From a virus (taxonomy: Duplodnaviria > Caudoviricetes), in IMG/VR virus record IMGVR_UViG_3300025132_000036, positions 1 to 60,287 of that record: 60,287 nt of DNA. One strand, given 5' to 3'. Positions 36,383 to 60,287 of this stretch are shown piece after piece. Positions within the stretch are counted from its first letter, which is position 1; each line of letters opens with the position of its first letter. Position numbers and translations under genes: made by a program. The notes under the pieces were generated by a model, which was not told the origin of the DNA, made no database searches, and worked only from the letters and a program-made list of their open reading frames with translations.

Positions 36383-37584
36383 CCCCCGGTGTCCGCGTCA
36401 GCGACCGACTCTTCGGCGGTAGCGCCACCGAGCGACTCAGCACACCACCATGCGGTGGTCATCAGGCGAGGCTCGTCGTCACGGGAAATGTACGGGGAGC
36501 CGACGACCATGAGGGTCGAGCCAACCGAGAAGTCCACGAGAGACTCGTGAGCAGCCGGGACGTACACGTCCACGGTGCCGGCGGTGGACATGATATCCAA
36601 GTCACCGACGGTCACGATGTAGCCACCGTTGTCTCGCGGGTCAATGTGAACGACCTCGGTCATCACGGCAGCGAGAGCGTTCCACTTCTCCTTGTCCCCA
36701 AGGGTACCGACGTAGGCACGAATGCCGTCGAGGGAATCGAGCGTCTTCACACCTTCCAGTTCCGCGACGAGAGCGTCAGGACCACCGGAGAAAATCGAGG
36801 ACAGGGACGTGTCGGCAGCAAAGGACGACATGCCGGCTGCACCGTAGGCGGTGTTGCCGTTGCGAGCAGGCTTCATGGCGATGGTACCGGGCACGAAGGT
36901 GGGGAACTGGTCCTCAGCGAGAGCGCCGCTGAACCGGAACGAGAACACCTCAACGTCACCGCTGCCTTCCTTGCGACCGAGGAACATGCAGGTACGCTCC
37001 TTCTCGGAGAGCGGGCGAGCCGCACCGTACTTGAAGTTCTTCTGACCGGAGGGCCACGTCGGCGTACTGTTGTTCCAAATCATGTGGAAGTGCAGGCCGT
37101 TGCCGACGGCGTAGGTGTCCTTGGGGAGCGACGAAACCTCGGCGGTCGCGTGCTCCATGGAGAAGTCGTCACCACGAGCGAGGCTCGGGTTGTACCGCTT
37201 GGTGTAGGAACCGTCGAGGTTGTCCTCGTACACGGTCACAATACCCTGCTCAACAAGGCCCTCGATGACGGGTTCCTCGGCGGTAGCCAACACGCCTGCG
37301 TTCTTCTTGTACGAAGACTTGGCCCAATCCTTGAACATGGGCACGCTCACGAACATACCCTCGTACACGGCTGCGCCAGACTTGGCGAGGCGCGTCTTTT
37401 GCGTCTTCAATTGGCGACCGGCAATGCGAAGCGCGTTCACTCCACACTCGTCCTCAGTCTTTCCTGCGTTCATCCACGCGCTGCGGTTCTCATCAAGCAC
37501 CTGCTCCATCCGAGCGCGGAGTGCGTCCTCGGTGCTTCCAATGTTCTGTGCAACGCGCTGCATCATCGTATTTAGGTCAGTCAT
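36373..37584 (-). CDS. Putative RPA-like ssDNA-binding protein
   Basis: Helical N-terminus as in archaeal RPA, OB-fold-like C-terminus, acidic tail; next to recombinase and RFC. Confidence 0.6.
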   Translation of the reverse strand: MTDLNTMMQRVAQNIGSTEDALRARMEQVLDENRSAWMNAGKTEDECGVNALRIAGRQLKTQKTRLAKSGAAVYEGMFVSVPMFKDWAKSSYKKNAGVLATAEEPVIEGLVEQGIVTVYEDNLDGSYTKRYNPSLARGDDFSMEHATAEVSSLPKDTYAVGNGLHFHMIWNNSTPTWPSGQKNFKYGAARPLSEKERTCMFLGRKEGSGDVEVFSFRFSGALAEDQFPTFVPGTIAMKPARNGNTAYGAAGMSSFAADTSLSSIFSGGPDALVAELEGVKTLDSLDGIRAYVGTLGDKEKWNALAAVMTEVVHIDPRDNGGYIVTVGDLDIMSTAGTVDVYVPAAHESLVDFSVGSTLMVVGSPYISRDDEPRLMTTAWWCAESLGGATAEESVADADTGGWD

Positions 37585-39002: not shown

Positions 39003-39224
39003 TCAATCCATAGACCGATACATGGACATGGCGAACACTTGGTCCTGTAGTTCGTCGTCGCGCTGACGCTCCGCACGGGTGGGCGGTAGGTCAAAGTCAT
39101 ACATGGGCTTGGCCATCTCGACGGCGAATAACCACCAAAACAAGAGGATGAGCAAGCCACCGAACACCGTCAGGCCGGTGAACAGGACGAGCGAACCCAC
39201 GATGGGGAAGGCGTACGGACTCAA
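39003..39224 (-). CDS. Small membrane protein
   Basis: Long hydrophobic stretch; TTG start overlapping the GGCT stop. Confidence 0.55.
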   Translation of the reverse strand: MSPYAFPIVGSLVLFTGLTVFGGLLILLFWWLFAVEMAKPMYDFDLPPTRAERQRDDELQDQVFAMSMYRSMD

Positions 39225-39607
39225 GGCCAGACCCCCTTTTGCTCTTGCTTGGCGGTGCCGGCCAAGTGAGGAATATGGTACGCCCACGCAGACACCACGG
39301 TTCCGTCGCTCAGCGTAATGTCCAACACGTTGCGAGTATAGTGCTTGGGGAAACCCTCCAGCCGGTCAATATGCCGCATATGGTCCGCATCCACCCGGTA
39401 CACTTCGCCCAAAACTGCGGTATGTCCGTAGGTCATAGCCGGGTAAGCACCAAGGTCCACAAGGTTCCACTTGGGTTCAGTCTTGCCGGCACCCAATAGT
39501 TCAGCACCGCGCAGGAAAGCATCGTTCCATTGCCCGGCCTTCAACGTGCCGTACACGAACAAGCGGTCCACCTGCATAGTCGTTTCATCATTCATCATCA
39601 TAGCCAT
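39221..39607 (-). CDS. Gamma-glutamylcyclotransferase (GGCT/AIG2-like)
   Basis: 'LFVYGTLK', 'YPAM', 'VLGEVY', 'IDRLEGFP..Y.R'. Confidence 0.92.
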   Translation of the reverse strand: MAMMMNDETTMQVDRLFVYGTLKAGQWNDAFLRGAELLGAGKTEPKWNLVDLGAYPAMTYGHTAVLGEVYRVDADHMRHIDRLEGFPKHYTRNVLDITLSDGTVVSAWAYHIPHLAGTAKQEQKGVWP

Positions 39608-43529: not shown

Positions 43530-43817
43530 AGATTCACCTTACGCACTTCAGTACTTAACCGTTGAGGTAATAGTTCAGATTGTTTCGGAACTGCAAACGC
43601 AAATCGTTCGAGGGACTGAGGGCCGATTGGCTGAATTGCTTCATTTGTTCATAAGGGTTTGAAGTAATACTAAGAGTATAGTAGTAAGATAGGGGGTCAG
43701 TCCTATTCTTCACAACCCCTATGAAGGAATGAAAGAATACGCCGAACATGCCCCCAGTCCCCCATTCCATTTACGTCAGCCTCGTTGAAAAAAACAGAAA
43801 GAATGGCGAAGGCTTTA
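43530..43817. other. AT-rich intergenic region, candidate replication origin/promoter region
   Basis: Visibly AT-richer than the GC-rich genome, no credible ORF, at the head of the replication operon. Confidence 0.4.
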
Positions 43818-54645: not shown

Positions 54646-57474
54646 TCAGCGGAGCCAACGCATGTCGCGGTAGTCGTCCGTCGCCCAGTTCCACTTCTCG
54701 GAGAAGAAGTCCTCGTCCAGAGACTGGTCGAGGTGGTCACGGGCGTGGCCGGCCGCAAGGTCTGCGTCTGCATCACGGTAGTCGCCCTTGGCGACCCACG
54801 ACCAATCAAGGTCTTGTTGGGACCAGATATCCACGTACAGGGAGCGGGGCAGTTCGTATTCCACAATGTGGTCCTCGTCCACCGCCGTTTGTCCCCGGTG
54901 CGTGTTTGCGTCGTAGCCGTCGTACCACTCGCCTTCATGGATGAAGGGAGGCCATCCGACGTAACCGAAGTCAGCCACACCTGCCTCGATGGCCGCGTCC
55001 TGCGCGGCAACTTGAAGCGCGTTGCGGTCAGCAACGGACACCTTGGGCGTCAGGTCAAGCGCACAGTTGTCCGCATTGCCGGAGGCTTTGCGGGGCTTGC
55101 TCCACGACCAACGGGTGTTTTGCCCGTAGGTGGTGGCGTAGGTGCGCCAGTCGTACGACGTGGCTGCGGTCTGGGCCGAGCCGGCAATGTCGCGGGAGGT
55201 AATCGCACCCGAAGGCGTGATTGTGTAGTGGCGACCAATGACGCATTCGTACACGGAAGCCAGTTCCTTGCCGAAGGCGTCTTCGAGGTGCGCGGTAGTG
55301 CTGCCGACCACAACAGGACCGGTGGTCTTGTCGCGGAGCCGACCGAACGAGAGTGGGTTGCCCCCGTTCGTCCAGAAGTGCAGGTGGTCAGGTTGGTCGC
55401 GGTCTGCCCAGATGAGGGACATGCTGCCCTTTGCGTACTTGACTACGGTTTCAATGCCGCCCACCTCGAGGGCTGCGGCCACCGCTTGAGAGTCAACATC
55501 GCCAGTTGGCTCGACCTTGATTCCTGCCCACACGTCTTCGTAGTTGTGAACGACGCCGTTGTGGACCAACACCACGCGCTCGTTGTGAGAGGCGTGGGGG
55601 TGCGCGTTTTCGGGCGTGTTTGCACCGTGCGTTGCGTACCGCGTGTGGACCATGGACCAGTTGATGTTCGTCTGCCCGAGTTGCTTGACCGTCTTGGCGG
55701 TGTACTTCTCGAGCGACTCGGCATGTGCAGCGACGCGCCATGTACGCAGGCCGTCCTTGCTGCGGATAGCCCACCCGGCTGCTTGTCCACCCCGCGAGGC
55801 GAGGAGGGTGTGCAACTTGGCGAGCCACTTGCCCTTGACGAACTTGCGGTTGTTTGCACGGTGGATGGCTCCAATGCCGCAGCCCACAATCAGGGCAGCG
55901 GCGGCAACCCATGAGCCGAAGCCCATGAGAAGGGACAAGAGTCCGAGCGCCGTGGCGTCCAACGAAAACTGGGACCACGAGAGGTGGTCGTCTGGGTCTT
56001 GGCCTGCGGCCTCCGCACAGCGCGTACAACCGCCTCGGAAGTACACAACGCTGAGTTCCGTATCTTGAGGGGTGAGTTCAAGGGTACAACCGAACTGCTC
56101 GTGCATGTATTCCTGAACACCCAAGGTGGCCAGTTCAGACCCGCAATCGTCGCATTGGATGTAGGGGTGCGCTTCGTACAGGGCATTGCGTCGTTCCACC
56201 GACAGTTGGTCGAGGTAGTACATGCGGCCGGGCACCCACAGGGAGTCCCCACCGCTCATCAGGCCCTGCAACGTCGCCGTGTTTGCGGTAGCGAGGGTTG
56301 GGTCTGTGTCCATCCATGGCCACTCGGGCTCAGGACCCTCATTCGCAAGGTGACGTGCGCGTGCTTCCCAGAACTGCATCTCCGGGTCATCCTCGGACAG
56401 ACCGAGGTAGTCCCGAATAGCAGCGATGCTGCTGAAGTAGGAGTCGCGTGTCTGAACGCTGCGGCGTTTCTTGGTCACATGACCGGCCGCCCAGTCCCAC
56501 CACGCATCTTCATCCATGGAACGCTGCACCATCAGGTAGCACAGTCGAATCCATGCGTACATCTTGTTCGAGTTCACGGTGCCTTGGTGGAGTCGGAACT
56601 CCACGGTGCCGTAACTTTCGAGGCAGGTCAGACGGACAGGCAGGTACCGGTCAGTACCGATGACCCGCCAAATGTCGCTGTACACGGCGCTCTTGACGTT
56701 GGGGTTCATCTCTGAGAGCGGCTTGTCCTTGGACCATCCGAACAGAGACTTCATGCCCCGTGGGTTGCTGTTGTCGAGCGCCTTTGCGACCTTCACCGTC
56801 TTGCTCGTCGGGCTGTAGTGGGTGTCGGGTCCTGCGGCACTCTTGATATCCCGTAGGTTCCGAGCGCCGGAGTAACTGTTGATGCCCGTCTTGGTGCGAC
56901 GGCTTGGGCTGACGATTGACTCGAAAGCACCAAACAAAATGTAGTACGCAATCGCAGTACGCATTCCCACACCCTTTGCCTGCTCGAAGGACACGGGGCC
57001 GTTGTTGTTGTTGTCGAAAGACCCGTTGTGGTCACGCAGCCCGATGTGGACGTGCATGCCGCACGAGGTATCAACCCCGAGCACTCCTGAAGCAGAGCGA
57101 CCAATGGCCCGCACGTAGTTTCGGATTCGTCCCCAACCGTGAAGCGGGGGAGACACGATTTCCGCGCTGCCGTACGACCCGCCGTTGAGCGAGGAGTCGG
57201 TGACGATTTTGGTATTCGTCATGGTACGATGTGAGTACCCCTCGTCTTGTGCGTGGACGTAGCCGTCGCTCGTCATGCGCAGGTACTGCGCAAGGGTGAC
57301 GTTGTTGAACTCAGCGGCCCGCTTGCGGACCTCCAGTTCCAACCCCGCTCGAGCGACCATTCGGTCGTGGTGCTTGGTTCCAATCCAAGCGACGCCAACT
57401 GCTGCCGTGAGCACAAAGGCCCAGAGCATGGGAAGCAGAGTAAGCGCCATGTTAATGTCTGTGGTTGCAGACAT
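54646..57474 (-). CDS. Amidoligase (COOH-NH2 ligase) fused to class II glutamine amidotransferase, with hydrophobic segments
   Basis: GLELE, 'VTDSSL', 'EIVSPPL', 'SCGMHVH', 'TVEFRLHQGT'; then CGI, 'SRG..AAG', 'HTRYATHG', 'NAHP', 'HNG', 'VDSQ'. Confidence 0.9.
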   Translation of the reverse strand: MSATTDINMALTLLPMLWAFVLTAAVGVAWIGTKHHDRMVARAGLELEVRKRAAEFNNVTLAQYLRMTSDGYVHAQDEGYSHRTMTNTKIVTDSSLNGGSYGSAEIVSPPLHGWGRIRNYVRAIGRSASGVLGVDTSCGMHVHIGLRDHNGSFDNNNNGPVSFEQAKGVGMRTAIAYYILFGAFESIVSPSRRTKTGINSYSGARNLRDIKSAAGPDTHYSPTSKTVKVAKALDNSNPRGMKSLFGWSKDKPLSEMNPNVKSAVYSDIWRVIGTDRYLPVRLTCLESYGTVEFRLHQGTVNSNKMYAWIRLCYLMVQRSMDEDAWWDWAAGHVTKKRRSVQTRDSYFSSIAAIRDYLGLSEDDPEMQFWEARARHLANEGPEPEWPWMDTDPTLATANTATLQGLMSGGDSLWVPGRMYYLDQLSVERRNALYEAHPYIQCDDCGSELATLGVQEYMHEQFGCTLELTPQDTELSVVYFRGGCTRCAEAAGQDPDDHLSWSQFSLDATALGLLSLLMGFGSWVAAAALIVGCGIGAIHRANNRKFVKGKWLAKLHTLLASRGGQAAGWAIRSKDGLRTWRVAAHAESLEKYTAKTVKQLGQTNINWSMVHTRYATHGANTPENAHPHASHNERVVLVHNGVVHNYEDVWAGIKVEPTGDVDSQAVAAALEVGGIETVVKYAKGSMSLIWADRDQPDHLHFWTNGGNPLSFGRLRDKTTGPVVVGSTTAHLEDAFGKELASVYECVIGRHYTITPSGAITSRDIAGSAQTAATSYDWRTYATTYGQNTRWSWSKPRKASGNADNCALDLTPKVSVADRNALQVAAQDAAIEAGVADFGYVGWPPFIHEGEWYDGYDANTHRGQTAVDEDHIVEYELPRSLYVDIWSQQDLDWSWVAKGDYRDADADLAAGHARDHLDQSLDEDFFSEKWNWATDDYRDMRWLR

Positions 57475-58385
57475 GTAGCATCCCTCCTTGGGAACCCGAG
57501 ATGGGCCGTAGCCGTTGGGTCGCGTTGCGTTATCTCGGATGGTCGCGCAACGAAGGACGTATGGTAGGTATCTGTATTACTGCCTGACGACGTGCGTACG
57601 TGCCTTAGTACGCCATGGACCGTATCTGTATCAACGGTCACTCTGTCGGGGCCGAAGCCGGGACAGTCGGGGGAGAGGTCTGACGGGCAGTTCTGGCTGC
57701 ACGTCCTCCCGAGCGAGTCTGCTTACATGTCTTCGCTTGCGCGGTGCCTCCGGTGTTTGTTTGGACCAATGCCGTAAATCTGTGGAGGCTGATTCTGTGC
57801 CGAGGACCTTATCCCTCGTTTGTCTGACTCGCTCTCTTGTCGTCAGGCGTCATGTACCCACTTGAGTGCGGTTTGTTTGGACCATCTGTTTGCCGTAGCA
57901 TCCAGTACGTCTGTGAGTAGGTGGGCTCCGGTATCTGTTGAAACCATCATCGCCCGTACAGGGGGGTGCCGCCGGTCTGTTGGGACCGGCGAACATGACG
58001 CTGATTTTCTGAGGTGGGAGTCTTCATTGCTCGATGCTCTTACGTCATCTTTTACGCTCTGTTTGCACAGTTCGCGTACCTCCATGCTCCCGTCGGTCCT
58101 GCTTGCACCGCAGCCTGCTCGTTCACACAGGGGTATCTGGCTCGGACTCTTGTCCACCTCAGTTTAGCCACTATATCATCCGGCACCCTTGGGTCCTGCT
58201 GCGTCCGTGCAAGTGGACCACAACACCACAAGGGTGCGTGTTTGCCTCAGAAGGGTGCCGTCAAAGCGGCTTGTTAGGATGCGATGGGGACCAGTCCGAA
58301 GGACCAACCCCCACCCCGTCGCCGGGTCGTGTAACCGTCCACACAACCACGCCGCCGGTGAGGGGTCGTCGCTGCTCGGGTATGA
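57455..58385 (-). ncRNA. Candidate large structured non-coding RNA / giant 5' leader
   Basis: No credible ORF; TATA promoter at 58406-58415; cUUCGg x2, GCAA tetraloop, several 9-10 bp long-range stems, recurrent ACAGA. Confidence 0.7.
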
Positions 58386-58404
58386 TAGGCCATCCGAGGG
58401 GTCC

Positions 58405-58416
58405 CATATAAACCCA
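58405..58416 (-). promoter_or_regulatory. TATA promoter GGGTTTATAT
   Basis: Same motif as at 46408-46417 and 49774-49783, and nearly so at 52672-52680. Confidence 0.7.
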
Positions 58417-58817
58417 TGCAATTGGGAAAACGTGGTACTGCGAGCAAGATCTCCCAAAAACGGCCGTTTCGGAGGGGCCGCCGGTCGGGGCCGGAGAGGG
58501 GCCGCCGGGAGGGTCGTCAACGGTGGGTTCAAGAGGGGGGCCGTGGTGGGGTGACCATGGGCCGACGGCACCCGTTCGGAGCGACGGAGGGAGGGCATGA
58601 GTTCCCCTCCTGAGAGGCCCTCTCTCCTCTCCTCAGATGGTGGGTCGTCGTGTTTCCCTAAGACTAATATAACCTCTCTCCCACGGAATAATCTCTCTCC
58701 CATATGTACACACCACACAGACCACACCACACGGGGCGCAGGGTACCACAGGAGGGCCACAGGAGGGCCGAAACGACCGAAGCGCGGGTTGATATAGCCC
58801 AACGTGGTGGGAGGGGC

Positions 58818-59291
58818 ATGAGCCGACCAAAGCCCACCGCCAAGCCCACCCGATTCAAGCACCGCTTCGGCTTCCGCCATGGGTGGGCCGTAGTGGCCCA
58901 CTACACCCCGAAGCAATCGAAGACCGTCATCCACGGCCACCGCAAAGACGGCCACTTCAAGAACTTCAGCAACGTCACCGGCAGCGGTTCCGTCCTCACC
59001 CTCAGCCTCCGCCGTGGAGGCCAGAAGCGCGGCACCACGAAGGTCATCGGGGCCAACGCCGACAACCTCGCAGCCCACCTCAACGCTTACCGGTCCAACG
59101 CCGTCCCACACGCCGCCCTGTGGCCCGTCATCGGTCGCCGCTCCGGTGCCTACGGTCGCCGGTCGTGGGGCACCGACACCTCGCACCCAACGAAGCACAT
59201 GGAGAACCACGACGACACCCGAACCACCCCGTACCGGTTCAAGGACTGGATGGGTGCGGTGTGGCTGACCCCGGAGGTCGCCGAGGAGTGA
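58818..59291 (+). CDS. Basic early protein, paralog A
   Basis: ATG 29 nt after the start of TTGATATA; similar to 59510-60109. Confidence 0.75.
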   Translation: MSRPKPTAKPTRFKHRFGFRHGWAVVAHYTPKQSKTVIHGHRKDGHFKNFSNVTGSGSVLTLSLRRGGQKRGTTKVIGANADNLAAHLNAYRSNAVPHAALWPVIGRRSGAYGRRSWGTDTSHPTKHMENHDDTRTTPYRFKDWMGAVWLTPEVAEE

Positions 59292-59356
59292 GGGGCACCG
59301 CCCGGAGGGAATCCCCTCCTCTCTCCTTTCGGTACCTCTCCCGAGGTGCCGTTAGG

Positions 59357-59399
59357 AAGACTGTTCCTTACTTAACGTATGAAATCTCTCTCCCATATG
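59357..59399. repeat. Intergenic repeat elements of the early cassettes
   Basis: 23 bp at 59357-59379 equals 13-35 (60201-60223); 17 bp at 59383-59399 equals 58690-58706. Confidence 0.9.
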
Positions 59400-59509
59400 G
59401 GGGCGCACACCTACCCCTCCCCGCCGAGCCGAGGGGTAGCCGAGCACCCCATAGAAGGGGAGCATCAGCCCGGCCGTGGGTTGATATAGGACCACACCGT
59501 CGGAGGAGC

Positions 59510-60109
59510 ATGAGCCGCCGCCGCGACCCCAACAAGCCCCTGCCTATGACCAAGACCACCATCACGCCCGAAACCAACGACAAGGGCAAGCCCATGCGGA
59601 AGAAGGGCGAACTGACCTTCAGCACCAAGAAGGCCCGCTTCGTCGTCAAGTTCGACTATCAGCCCACCTTCAGCACCACCGTCGAACGCCGCCACCACAA
59701 GCACGGCGCACCGAAGAACTATCACACCCGCACCGGGTCCGGGTCCAACCTCCGGGTGACCATCGGCAAGATGCAGCGCGGACGGTGGACGACCATCCGA
59801 AGCCGTGAGTTCACCGGCACCCTTGCAGACGGTTGGTTCGCCGACCTGTGGGACGCTTCGATGCCGGGTCGGGATGTGTGGGCCTTCTGGTCCCTGTTCA
59901 AGCCCAAGGGCCGCATGTGGACCACCGAGCGAACCGGCGAGGACACCACCCACGAGTACCGCGTGACCGAGAACGACGACCCAACCCGCCGCGTCCCCTT
60001 CAGCGAGAAGTCCACCTTCCAAGACGGCCAGAAGTCGGCGATGTGGAACACCCCCCACGTTGACGACAAGTCCCCCAAGGCCGAGGCATGGAGGCGTGGC
60101 GAGATGTGA
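59510..60109 (+). CDS. Basic early protein, paralog B
   Basis: ATG 29 nt after the start of TTGATATA; shares the TGSGS motif with paralog A. Confidence 0.75.
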   Translation: MSRRRDPNKPLPMTKTTITPETNDKGKPMRKKGELTFSTKKARFVVKFDYQPTFSTTVERRHHKHGAPKNYHTRTGSGSNLRVTIGKMQRGRWTTIRSREFTGTLADGWFADLWDASMPGRDVWAFWSLFKPKGRMWTTERTGEDTTHEYRVTENDDPTRRVPFSEKSTFQDGQKSAMWNTPHVDDKSPKAEAWRRGEM

Positions 60110-60188
60110 GGGGGACACCTCCCGCCGCCGCCGCCGGGGGGCCTGCCGCAGCAGGTCCCCCATTTCTTCTTCAGATGCTCTCTCCAAA

Positions 60189-60287
60189 GACGCCGTAGGA
60201 AAGACTGTTCCTTACTTAACGTAATATCTCTCTCTCCTATCTCTCTCACACAGGTCGCGCGTACGCACCCAGTATGCACATAGGGGA
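60189..60287. repeat. Terminal direct repeat (copy 2)
   Basis: Identical to 1-99. Confidence 0.95.

Follow-up and report, generated by a model that had tools for sequence, protein, structure and literature searches.

The window analysed here, a complete virus record of 60,287 bp (IMGVR_UViG_3300025132_000036), carries on its minus strand a stretch of about 676 nt, immediately upstream of an amidoligase-glutamine amidotransferase (GATase) gene, in which the motif ACAGA is repeated ten times. An original prediction had read positions 57455-58140 as an array of ACAGA motifs, several of them in hairpin loops, and had proposed a CsrB-like protein sponge. Our results argue, with good confidence, for a minus-strand leader RNA that is non-coding, structured and under selection, and on balance the best overall reading is that of a cis-acting leader whose ACAGA motifs dock protein. 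That ACAGA is itself the site of a specific binder is a separate and more tentative claim. The array proved to be strand-specific and to lie on a structured, selected and very probably minus-strand RNA, but the stretch is not a free-standing small RNA (sRNA) gene.

The array was read on the minus-strand RNA, where ACAGA corresponds to TCTGT on the plus strand. TCTGT occurs 11 times in 57455-58140 (686 nt), at exactly the positions predicted, and 45 times in the whole window, the other 34 copies being spread over the remaining 59.6 kb (about 0.4 per 686 nt). The plus strand of the same interval contains no ACAGA (count 0), and TCTG is found there 17 times, six of these beyond the TCTGT copies, again as claimed. 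With counts made on a 691-nt leader (57475-58165) and the sense strands of the viral genes as background, ACAGA was the top-enriched 5-mer (10 vs 0.53 expected, Poisson p=2.7e-10), and the leader's own base composition would give 1.2 copies. CAGA occurs 16 times in the leader, and CAGAUAC four times there against seven genome-wide on that strand (three outside the leader). The eleventh ACAGA, at 57458, falls within coding sequence (codons 4-6 of the 942-aa amidoligase gene) and is not kept in relatives. The array and an internal repeat are as follows.

57571-58062, minus strand: ten leader copies of ACAGA (TCTGT starts at 57571, 57625, 57642, 57779, 57794, 57885, 57910, 57934, 57976 and 58058)
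57748-57897, minus strand: two copies of the module UACGGCA...UGGUCCAAACAAAC (repeat family D4; plus-strand GTTTGTTTGGACCA at 57755 and 57871)

The two occurrences of GTTTGTTTGGACCA, each followed by TGCCGTA, had been described correctly. The elements that delimit the leader are listed next.

57475-58150, minus strand: non-coding structured 5' leader RNA, about 676 nt, with a putative 5' end
58171-58178, minus strand: TATA-box-like promoter element ATGATATAG, facing the leader
57482-57489, minus strand: Shine-Dalgarno (SD) sequence AAGGAGGG, 7 nt (57475-57481) before the start codon and invariant in relatives
54646-57474, minus strand: amidoligase-glutamine amidotransferase gene, 942 aa, served by the leader

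The octamer TGATATAG is present four times in the genome (0.27 expected), always within this control region, and one of the four is the minus-strand box at 58171-58178. More broadly, T[GT]ATATA occurs 10 times in the genome, and for seven of the ten a gene start on the matching strand follows 21-48 nt downstream. Several genes lie 21-23 nt from their own TATA box, and the boxes before the genes for the family-B DNA polymerase (PolB) and an RFC-like protein are 22-23 nt from the ATG, without an SD sequence. Based on this spacing at other genes, we infer that transcription starts at about 58150, some 21 nt past the box. The 58171-58178 box stands 697 nt upstream of the next start codon, the only such long gap in the genome. 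A second conserved TATA-like box, TTTATATG at 58405-58412 on the minus strand, could provide an alternative start near 58383, and the array would be inside the transcript either way. None of the three homologues (the window sequence, W, and its close relatives, the metagenome contigs L135 and L136) has a run of four or more U in its leader, and no terminator-like site was found on the minus strand before the SD-led gene, which suggests that the leader is co-transcribed with the amidoligase gene.

In the 942-aa product, Pfam (PF12224, 1.8e-13; PF13522, 1e-13) and PHROGs gave amidoligase_2 and class-II glutamine amidotransferase domains, and a hydrophobic N-terminal stretch was apparent by eye. 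The hairpin AUGUCUG-CAACCA-CAGACAU (57455-57474, minus strand), listed in the original prediction among the motif-bearing hairpins, is real and spans the amidoligase start codon; relatives hold a shorter start-codon hairpin (GUCC...GGAC) despite a differing peptide. We also considered a conserved switch that sequesters the SD sequence and rejected it, since the helix hiding the SD is predicted for W and not for L135 or L136. The same virus encodes a gamma-glutamyl cyclotransferase (39221-39607, minus strand) besides the amidoligase-GATase fusion, and Iyer et al. 2009, as cited in a passage of PMC11706807, discussed an amidoligase/gamma-glutamyl cyclotransferase enzyme set in phages.

The stretch shows no coding signal. 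Codon-usage scores were negative for every open reading frame (ORF) in 57475-58800, compared with +0.25 to +0.60 for the 20 training genes, and indels of 1, 2, 3 and 6 nt in the relatives break every leader frame, ruling out a conserved reading frame. Its sequence is the best-conserved part of its locus. The leader is 91.9% identical to that of L135 (612/666) and 91.9% to that of L136, compared with 71.5% and 68.0%, respectively, for the adjacent amidoligase coding sequence and 88.7% and 86.0% for the early gene on its far side. Identity at four-fold degenerate sites is 80.4% (45/56) for this early gene and 50.4% for the amidoligase gene, and leader conservation exceeds that of four-fold sites (Fisher p=0.012). 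Because the leader is more conserved than these nearer-neutral sites, mosaic ancestry alone does not explain the pattern. The stretch was also carried, with few differences, by the independent marine runs X4 and X6, in which the start of the amidoligase gene has diverged beyond alignment.

The minus strand is also the one that folds better. The minus-strand RNA of the single sequence folded better than its shuffles (z=-4.5, 0/20 as good), compared with z=-1.15 for the plus strand, and the consensus fold of the three sequences gave z=-3.66 (0/30) and z=-2.26 (1/30), respectively, with column shuffles that do not keep dinucleotides. In the fold of the window sequence alone, used so that the alignment could not bias the test, variable sites avoided paired positions on the minus strand (28/396 paired vs 51/298 unpaired, p=5.5e-5), and no such avoidance was seen in the plus-strand fold (p=0.27). 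Conservation above that of nearby sites together with this strand-specific avoidance of stems by substitutions indicates a selected, structured 5' leader RNA. In the consensus structure of 191 pairs, three pairs changed in a compensatory manner, nine were compatible through a one-sided change and three were broken.

Several ACAGA copies are borne by conserved hairpins.

57618-57639, minus strand: hairpin GACCGU-UGAUACAGAU-ACGGUC, 10-nt loop with ACAGA, invariant in 3/3 sequences, loop unpaired probability 0.96
57567-57584, minus strand: hairpin-like GGCAGUAAUACAGAUACC, which in relatives reads GGCGUGAUACAGAUGCC, with an identical UGAUACAGAU loop and a better stem
57930-57945, minus strand: hairpin GGU-UUCAACAGAU-ACC, 10-nt loop ending in ACAGAU, invariant in 3/3 sequences
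57971-57990, minus strand: hairpin GCCGGUC-CCAACA-GACCGGC, ACA in the loop and GA in the stem, invariant

Three hairpins share a 10-nt loop ending in ACAGAU (NNNNACAGAU), and the first two elements listed share a 17-nt direct repeat (family D19). The 57971-57990 hairpin has a 7-8 bp stem in both the minimum free energy and the centroid structure. It and the 57618-57639 hairpin had both been predicted, and both are real and invariant in the two relatives; the predicted pairing of GGCAGUA with UACCUACC is poor on the RNA strand, with a C.A mismatch where the plus strand has G.T. The UGAUACAGAU loops could, on inspection, form tandem G.A pairs, but without the 3-nt bulge of a K-turn.

As for the motif itself, L135 and L136 keep 8/10 ACAGA copies unchanged and have lost those at 58058 and 57910, and L135 gains one ACAGA where W reads GCAGA. 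The three homologues have roughly similar copy numbers (10, 9 and 8), and the stretch equivalent to 57455-58140 holds nine TCTGT each in L135 and L136, with no ACAGA on that strand. Mean unpaired probability is predicted to be at least 0.6 for 7/10 motifs, the remaining three lying mostly in stems, where they pair with CUGU or CUG. Within the set of unpaired bases, motif positions were not conserved more than the others (4/33 vs 47/262 variable), and the unpaired copies 2, 3, 6, 7, 9 and 10 are invariant.

On these observations we propose the following scheme. A leftward transcript would start about 21 nt past the minus-strand TATA-like box and run through some 676 nt without an oligo-U stop into the SD-led amidoligase-GATase gene, displaying ten ACAGA motifs, of which about seven would be single-stranded and three of those presented in similar 10-nt hairpin loops. 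The leader may then act in cis as a docking platform for several copies of one ACAGA-recognising protein, of host or viral origin, and the bound protein might govern the early-left mRNA through its stability, its translation or its elongation. Any titration of the protein would be a by-product.

A number of results weigh against this docking reading. Bases within the motifs are no better conserved than the others (5/50 vs 74/641 variable, p=1.0). The contexts of the ten copies are mixed (three in stems, three in hairpin loops, one half in a loop and half in a stem, three in linkers), and mean motif unpaired probability is 0.62, compared with about 0.55 expected from base composition and 0.43 for the whole RNA; loop display is therefore predicted to be only slightly above chance. 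Motif 1 becomes GCAG with a compensating CUGC in its partner, which is structural rather than motif behaviour. Covariation is modest in the fold of W alone (18 changed pair cells kept vs 24 broken) and thin overall, the alignment consisting of three sequences, two of them close to each other. Internal duplication may be the source of part of the ACAGA copy number. The box at the promoter position reads ATGATACGG in the relatives, which is degenerate and hence weaker, and both the transcription of the leader RNA and its start site are putative. Finally, no RNA-binding, RNase, MazF-like or toxin domain was found among the viral proteins scanned against Pfam and PHROGs (49 distinct proteins in the right frame, covering about 47 of 69 gene calls), and a protein atlas gave no usable match for the early protein P0002.

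The distant relatives bear on the age of the array. A terminase search returned 14 loci at 56-79% protein identity, five of which keep the order amidoligase gene (minus strand), control region, exonuclease and terminase (plus strand). The distant syntenic relatives have a G+C content of 42-49% and no nucleotide similarity to the leader; they contain no TCTGT cluster or ACAGA array, a further point against the docking reading, so that the predicted conservation of the motif extends to close relatives and not to these. A search of the 14 distant loci with nhmmer and a three-sequence profile gave nothing convincing (best E=0.15). The upstream regions of three distant relatives, however, fold better than their shuffles (z=-3.5, -2.8 and -1.8), and since these regions are structured yet lack ACAGA, a long structured leader before the amidoligase gene may be older than the array. 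In the viral_contigs set no close relative was found by amidoligase protein, early protein or leader 22-mer, and a 14-mer scan gave single chance matches only, none alike by blastn. A 21-mer match in L137, a bacterial metagenome-assembled genome, was discarded as chance, blastn showing no similarity. Distant relatives bear long CTCTC/TCTCT tracts in their equivalent control regions (L123 4830-4960 and 5870-5900; L134 3766-4466), with about 20 copies per 700 nt.

Large insertions occur at one position in the leader. L136 has 265 nt inserted at 57868/57882, inside the second module copy, with a small minus-strand ORF preceded by its own SD sequence, and run X4 has 282 nt at the same place, which probably also carry a minus-strand small ORF with an SD. 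The insertion site fits a domain boundary in the minus-strand transcript, and the strand of the small ORF, the same as that of the leader, counts in favour of the leader reading. The inserted gene of L136 (1361-1546, minus strand) has 50-61 codons and its own SD and is followed by a G+C-rich hairpin.

The alternative that survives best, though we consider it unlikely, is a leader in which only the fold matters, for mRNA stability, timing or the sensing of a ligand or of temperature, with no dedicated binder; the ACAGA excess would then arise as a by-product, from internal duplication, from CUGU:ACAG stems and from linkers rich in A and C and poor in U. Selection on stems without special conservation of motif bases is what such a leader would show, as are the covariation of motif 1 with its CUGU partner and the structured, ACAGA-free leaders before the same gene in distant relatives. 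Some ACAGA copies do belong to internal repeats, families D4, D13 and D19 each carrying a CAGA, and the two leader halves are weakly collinear (score 60 vs 40.5 +/- 7.7, maximum 69). This explanation is opposed by the base composition of the leader, which predicts 1.2 copies and not 10, by the three separate hairpins whose 10-nt loops all end in ACAGAU and by the invariance of the six unpaired copies. Nor was a known sensor recognised: a search of the whole window against Rfam gave 0 matches at gathering scores, and at E up to 10 over 57400-58850 the sole match was a chance microRNA, with no riboswitch or leader family (e.g. glutamine).

Less probable again is the sponge or decoy of the original prediction, in which the leader, or a piece processed from it, would act freely and titrate a host RNA-binding protein or RNase through ACAGA. 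Ten copies in about 680 nt, mostly predicted to be accessible, their number roughly kept across the three homologues with one gain, and an RNA from an apparently early promoter are all compatible with this idea. However, the RNA has no separate gene end, lacking both a U run of at least 4 and a terminator-like site before the SD-led gene, the motif is conserved no better than its surroundings, GGA is not enriched (12 vs 11.8-14.5 expected) and no Rfam sponge family matched. An ACAGA-specific RNase is itself unlikely as the target, because the virus's own mRNAs do not avoid ACAGA (25 vs 20-28 expected; 18 vs 16-25 expected). A variant that we regard as improbable is an early-made, multivalent ACAGA-display RNA, whole or processed, that captures a host RNA-binding or RNA-modifying protein. 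If true, such an RNA would correspond, in an archaeal virus, to the sponge RNAs of bacteria or to the hairpin array of the METTL16-MAT2A pair, and the viral amidoligase operon might have its expression coupled to the state of the captured host protein.

It is very improbable that the array acts at the DNA level, the TCTGT boxes binding a replication initiator, a packaging protein or a repressor on double-stranded DNA. Such a role would suit short repeats that share one orientation and lie in the genome's main divergent control region, but the boxes are spaced irregularly (15 to 137 bp) without helical phasing, the spacers are conserved as well as the boxes, no AT-rich unwinding stretch is present (lowest 40-nt GC 0.42, the AT-rich spots being elsewhere), and the signals from folding and from substitutions belong to one strand, read as RNA. 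Hidden protein-coding sequence, as small ORFs or in an unusual code, is hardly credible: ORFs of 104-122 codons do occur in the stretch, owing to its high G+C, but their codon scores are all negative and their frames are broken by the indels described above.

The virus that carries the leader is tailed, with genes for a large terminase, a portal, a tape-measure protein and tail proteins, and it also encodes PolB, an RFC-like AAA+ clamp-loader protein, a PD-(D/E)XK nuclease and an ERCC4-HhH nuclease. A 99-bp terminal repeat is present in the window and would most simply be an assembly overlap. As the TATA-box spacing fits archaeal TATA boxes and leaderless mRNAs, and not bacterial -10 elements, we read the virus as archaeal. 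Among named viruses its PolB is nearest to the polymerases of haloarchaeal tailed viruses (23-24% identity), and the public runs holding the window sequence are marine metagenomes, with no RNA run among those listed. The host is most probably a marine archaeon, and marine group II, assumed in the original prediction, is a plausible candidate. No DNA match to the window was found in a phage collection. An assignment to Vyasavirus was dropped: a passage of PMC11706807 describes Vyasavirus as a Poseidoniales virus bearing amidoligase and GATase but without DNA polymerase, whereas the virus described here has PolB.

On the side away from the amidoligase gene, the next gene starts at 58818 on the plus strand, leaving a gap of 1.3 kb between the two genes. 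The part between the divergent promoters (58151-58817) is non-coding to judge from codon scores, with 87-89% conservation in L135 and L136, and it contains back-to-back TATA-like boxes (58381-58389, plus strand; 58405-58412, minus strand), a GGAGGGGCCGCCG tandem repeat at 58471-58513 and CCACAGGAGGG twice in 58746-58769. Positions 58416-58613 on the plus strand hold a candidate 65-aa arginine-rich ORF (MQLGKRGTASK...RRGRRSGPERGRR...) with a negative codon score. Its first 32 or so codons are kept in L136, with a GTG start, and an 11-nt indel, also found in X4, shifts the rest; the product, if real, could be an arginine-rich RNA binder. Viral early proteins are encoded at 58818-59291 and 59510-60109. 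Further on (58790-60287 and 1-450) there are three rightward mini-cassettes, each with GGGTTGATATAG and a GGAGG 12-13 nt downstream, and in two of the three the ATG follows TGATATAG by exactly 20 nt. They encode two basic paralogues of no known family (157 and 199 aa; 30% identity, E=9e-12) and, in the third, a 60-aa ORF. A conserved element of about 60 nt, comprising a AGGAAGACTGTTCCT hairpin and CTCTCTCC, comes after each cassette (59336-59396 and 60180-60240; 80% identical), with a partial third copy at about 58650-58706. In the control regions of the distant relatives L123 and L134 the CTCTC/TCTCT tracts come with repeated CCCGTTCATGATAGG boxes, and the window has shorter CTCTCTCC elements at matching places. 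The most AT-rich spot of the genome is at 574-600 (40-nt G+C 0.28), just upstream of the exonuclease/phosphoesterase gene, with further AT-rich spots at 37569 and 43632-43653, all of them possible unwinding or promoter regions. A replication origin at the ACAGA stretch was considered and discarded for want of an AT-rich element.

Long structured 5' leaders are unusual in archaea, many of whose mRNAs are leaderless. For the viruses of abundant marine archaea that have not been cultured, metagenomes are the sole source and gene control is unexplored; the leader is a candidate for a new class of structured regulatory RNA in an archaeal virus, and its simple repeated motif makes it directly testable. 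Term look-ups in two papers on marine archaeal viruses (PMC5434244 and PMC11706807) returned no mention of non-coding RNAs or promoters, and a full-text literature search gave nothing relevant on ACAGA with archaeal RNA-binding proteins or on sponge RNAs of archaeal viruses.

Among known systems, the bacterial sponge RNAs CsrB, RsmZ and CrcZ carry many copies of a short motif, many of them single-stranded, on a structured RNA, and the leader likewise is a single structured RNA on which one short motif recurs many times. The motif, however, is ACAGA rather than GGA or A-rich CA boxes, and CsrB and RsmZ are separate sRNA genes with a terminator, in contrast to an mRNA leader that abuts an SD-led gene, matches no Rfam covariance model and whose host is probably archaeal. 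CsrA is not known from archaea. ToxI-type antitoxin RNAs, which neutralise a protein through a repeated element on a phage or plasmid, consist of tandem repeats of about 36 nt beside a ToxN-type gene. The leader is also a repeated RNA element on a viral genome, but Tandem Repeats Finder detected no tandem repeats in 57475-58165, so that the ToxI-like repeats invoked in the original prediction are not present, and the neighbouring gene encodes an amidoligase-GATase and not a ToxN-like protein. GOLLD and ROOL, large structured phage-associated RNAs represented in Rfam, resemble the leader as large conserved structured non-coding RNAs on a viral genome, but no Rfam model matched it even at E up to 10 and it is attached to an mRNA. 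Features of K-turn/L7Ae or C/D-box RNAs were not seen on inspection, made with no dedicated tool: UGAUGA is absent and CAGA replaces CUGA. In phage lambda, the nut sites place boxB hairpins in early leaders, where they are bound by the arginine-rich N protein. Here, too, the virus is tailed and hairpins stand in a long leader that closely follows an early promoter, with a small arginine-rich ORF nearby (58416-58613). That ORF is doubtful, however, no similarity to boxA or boxB is present, and the machinery of transcription is archaeal.

The last comparison is with METTL16. According to a passage of PMC9778287, MAT2A's 3' untranslated region (UTR) contains six stem-loops, each with UACAGAGAA, that are bound by this N6-methyladenosine (m6A) methyltransferase and control the fate of the mRNA, and the ACAGA box of U6 is a METTL16 substrate. 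The leader, like the MAT2A array, is an untranslated region in which several hairpins present ACAGA-containing loops. It differs in that the array is in a 5' leader rather than a 3' UTR and in that the nonamer UACAGAGAA is found in 0/10 copies, UACAGA being present in two and ACAGAG in two. No Methyltransf_10 (PF05971) protein is encoded in the virus; in a control search, PF05971 matched 7/14 named genomes, including three archaea, four of them over the cut-off. The resemblance between the leader and the METTL16-MAT2A pair is therefore best taken as one of design, a lead rather than membership.

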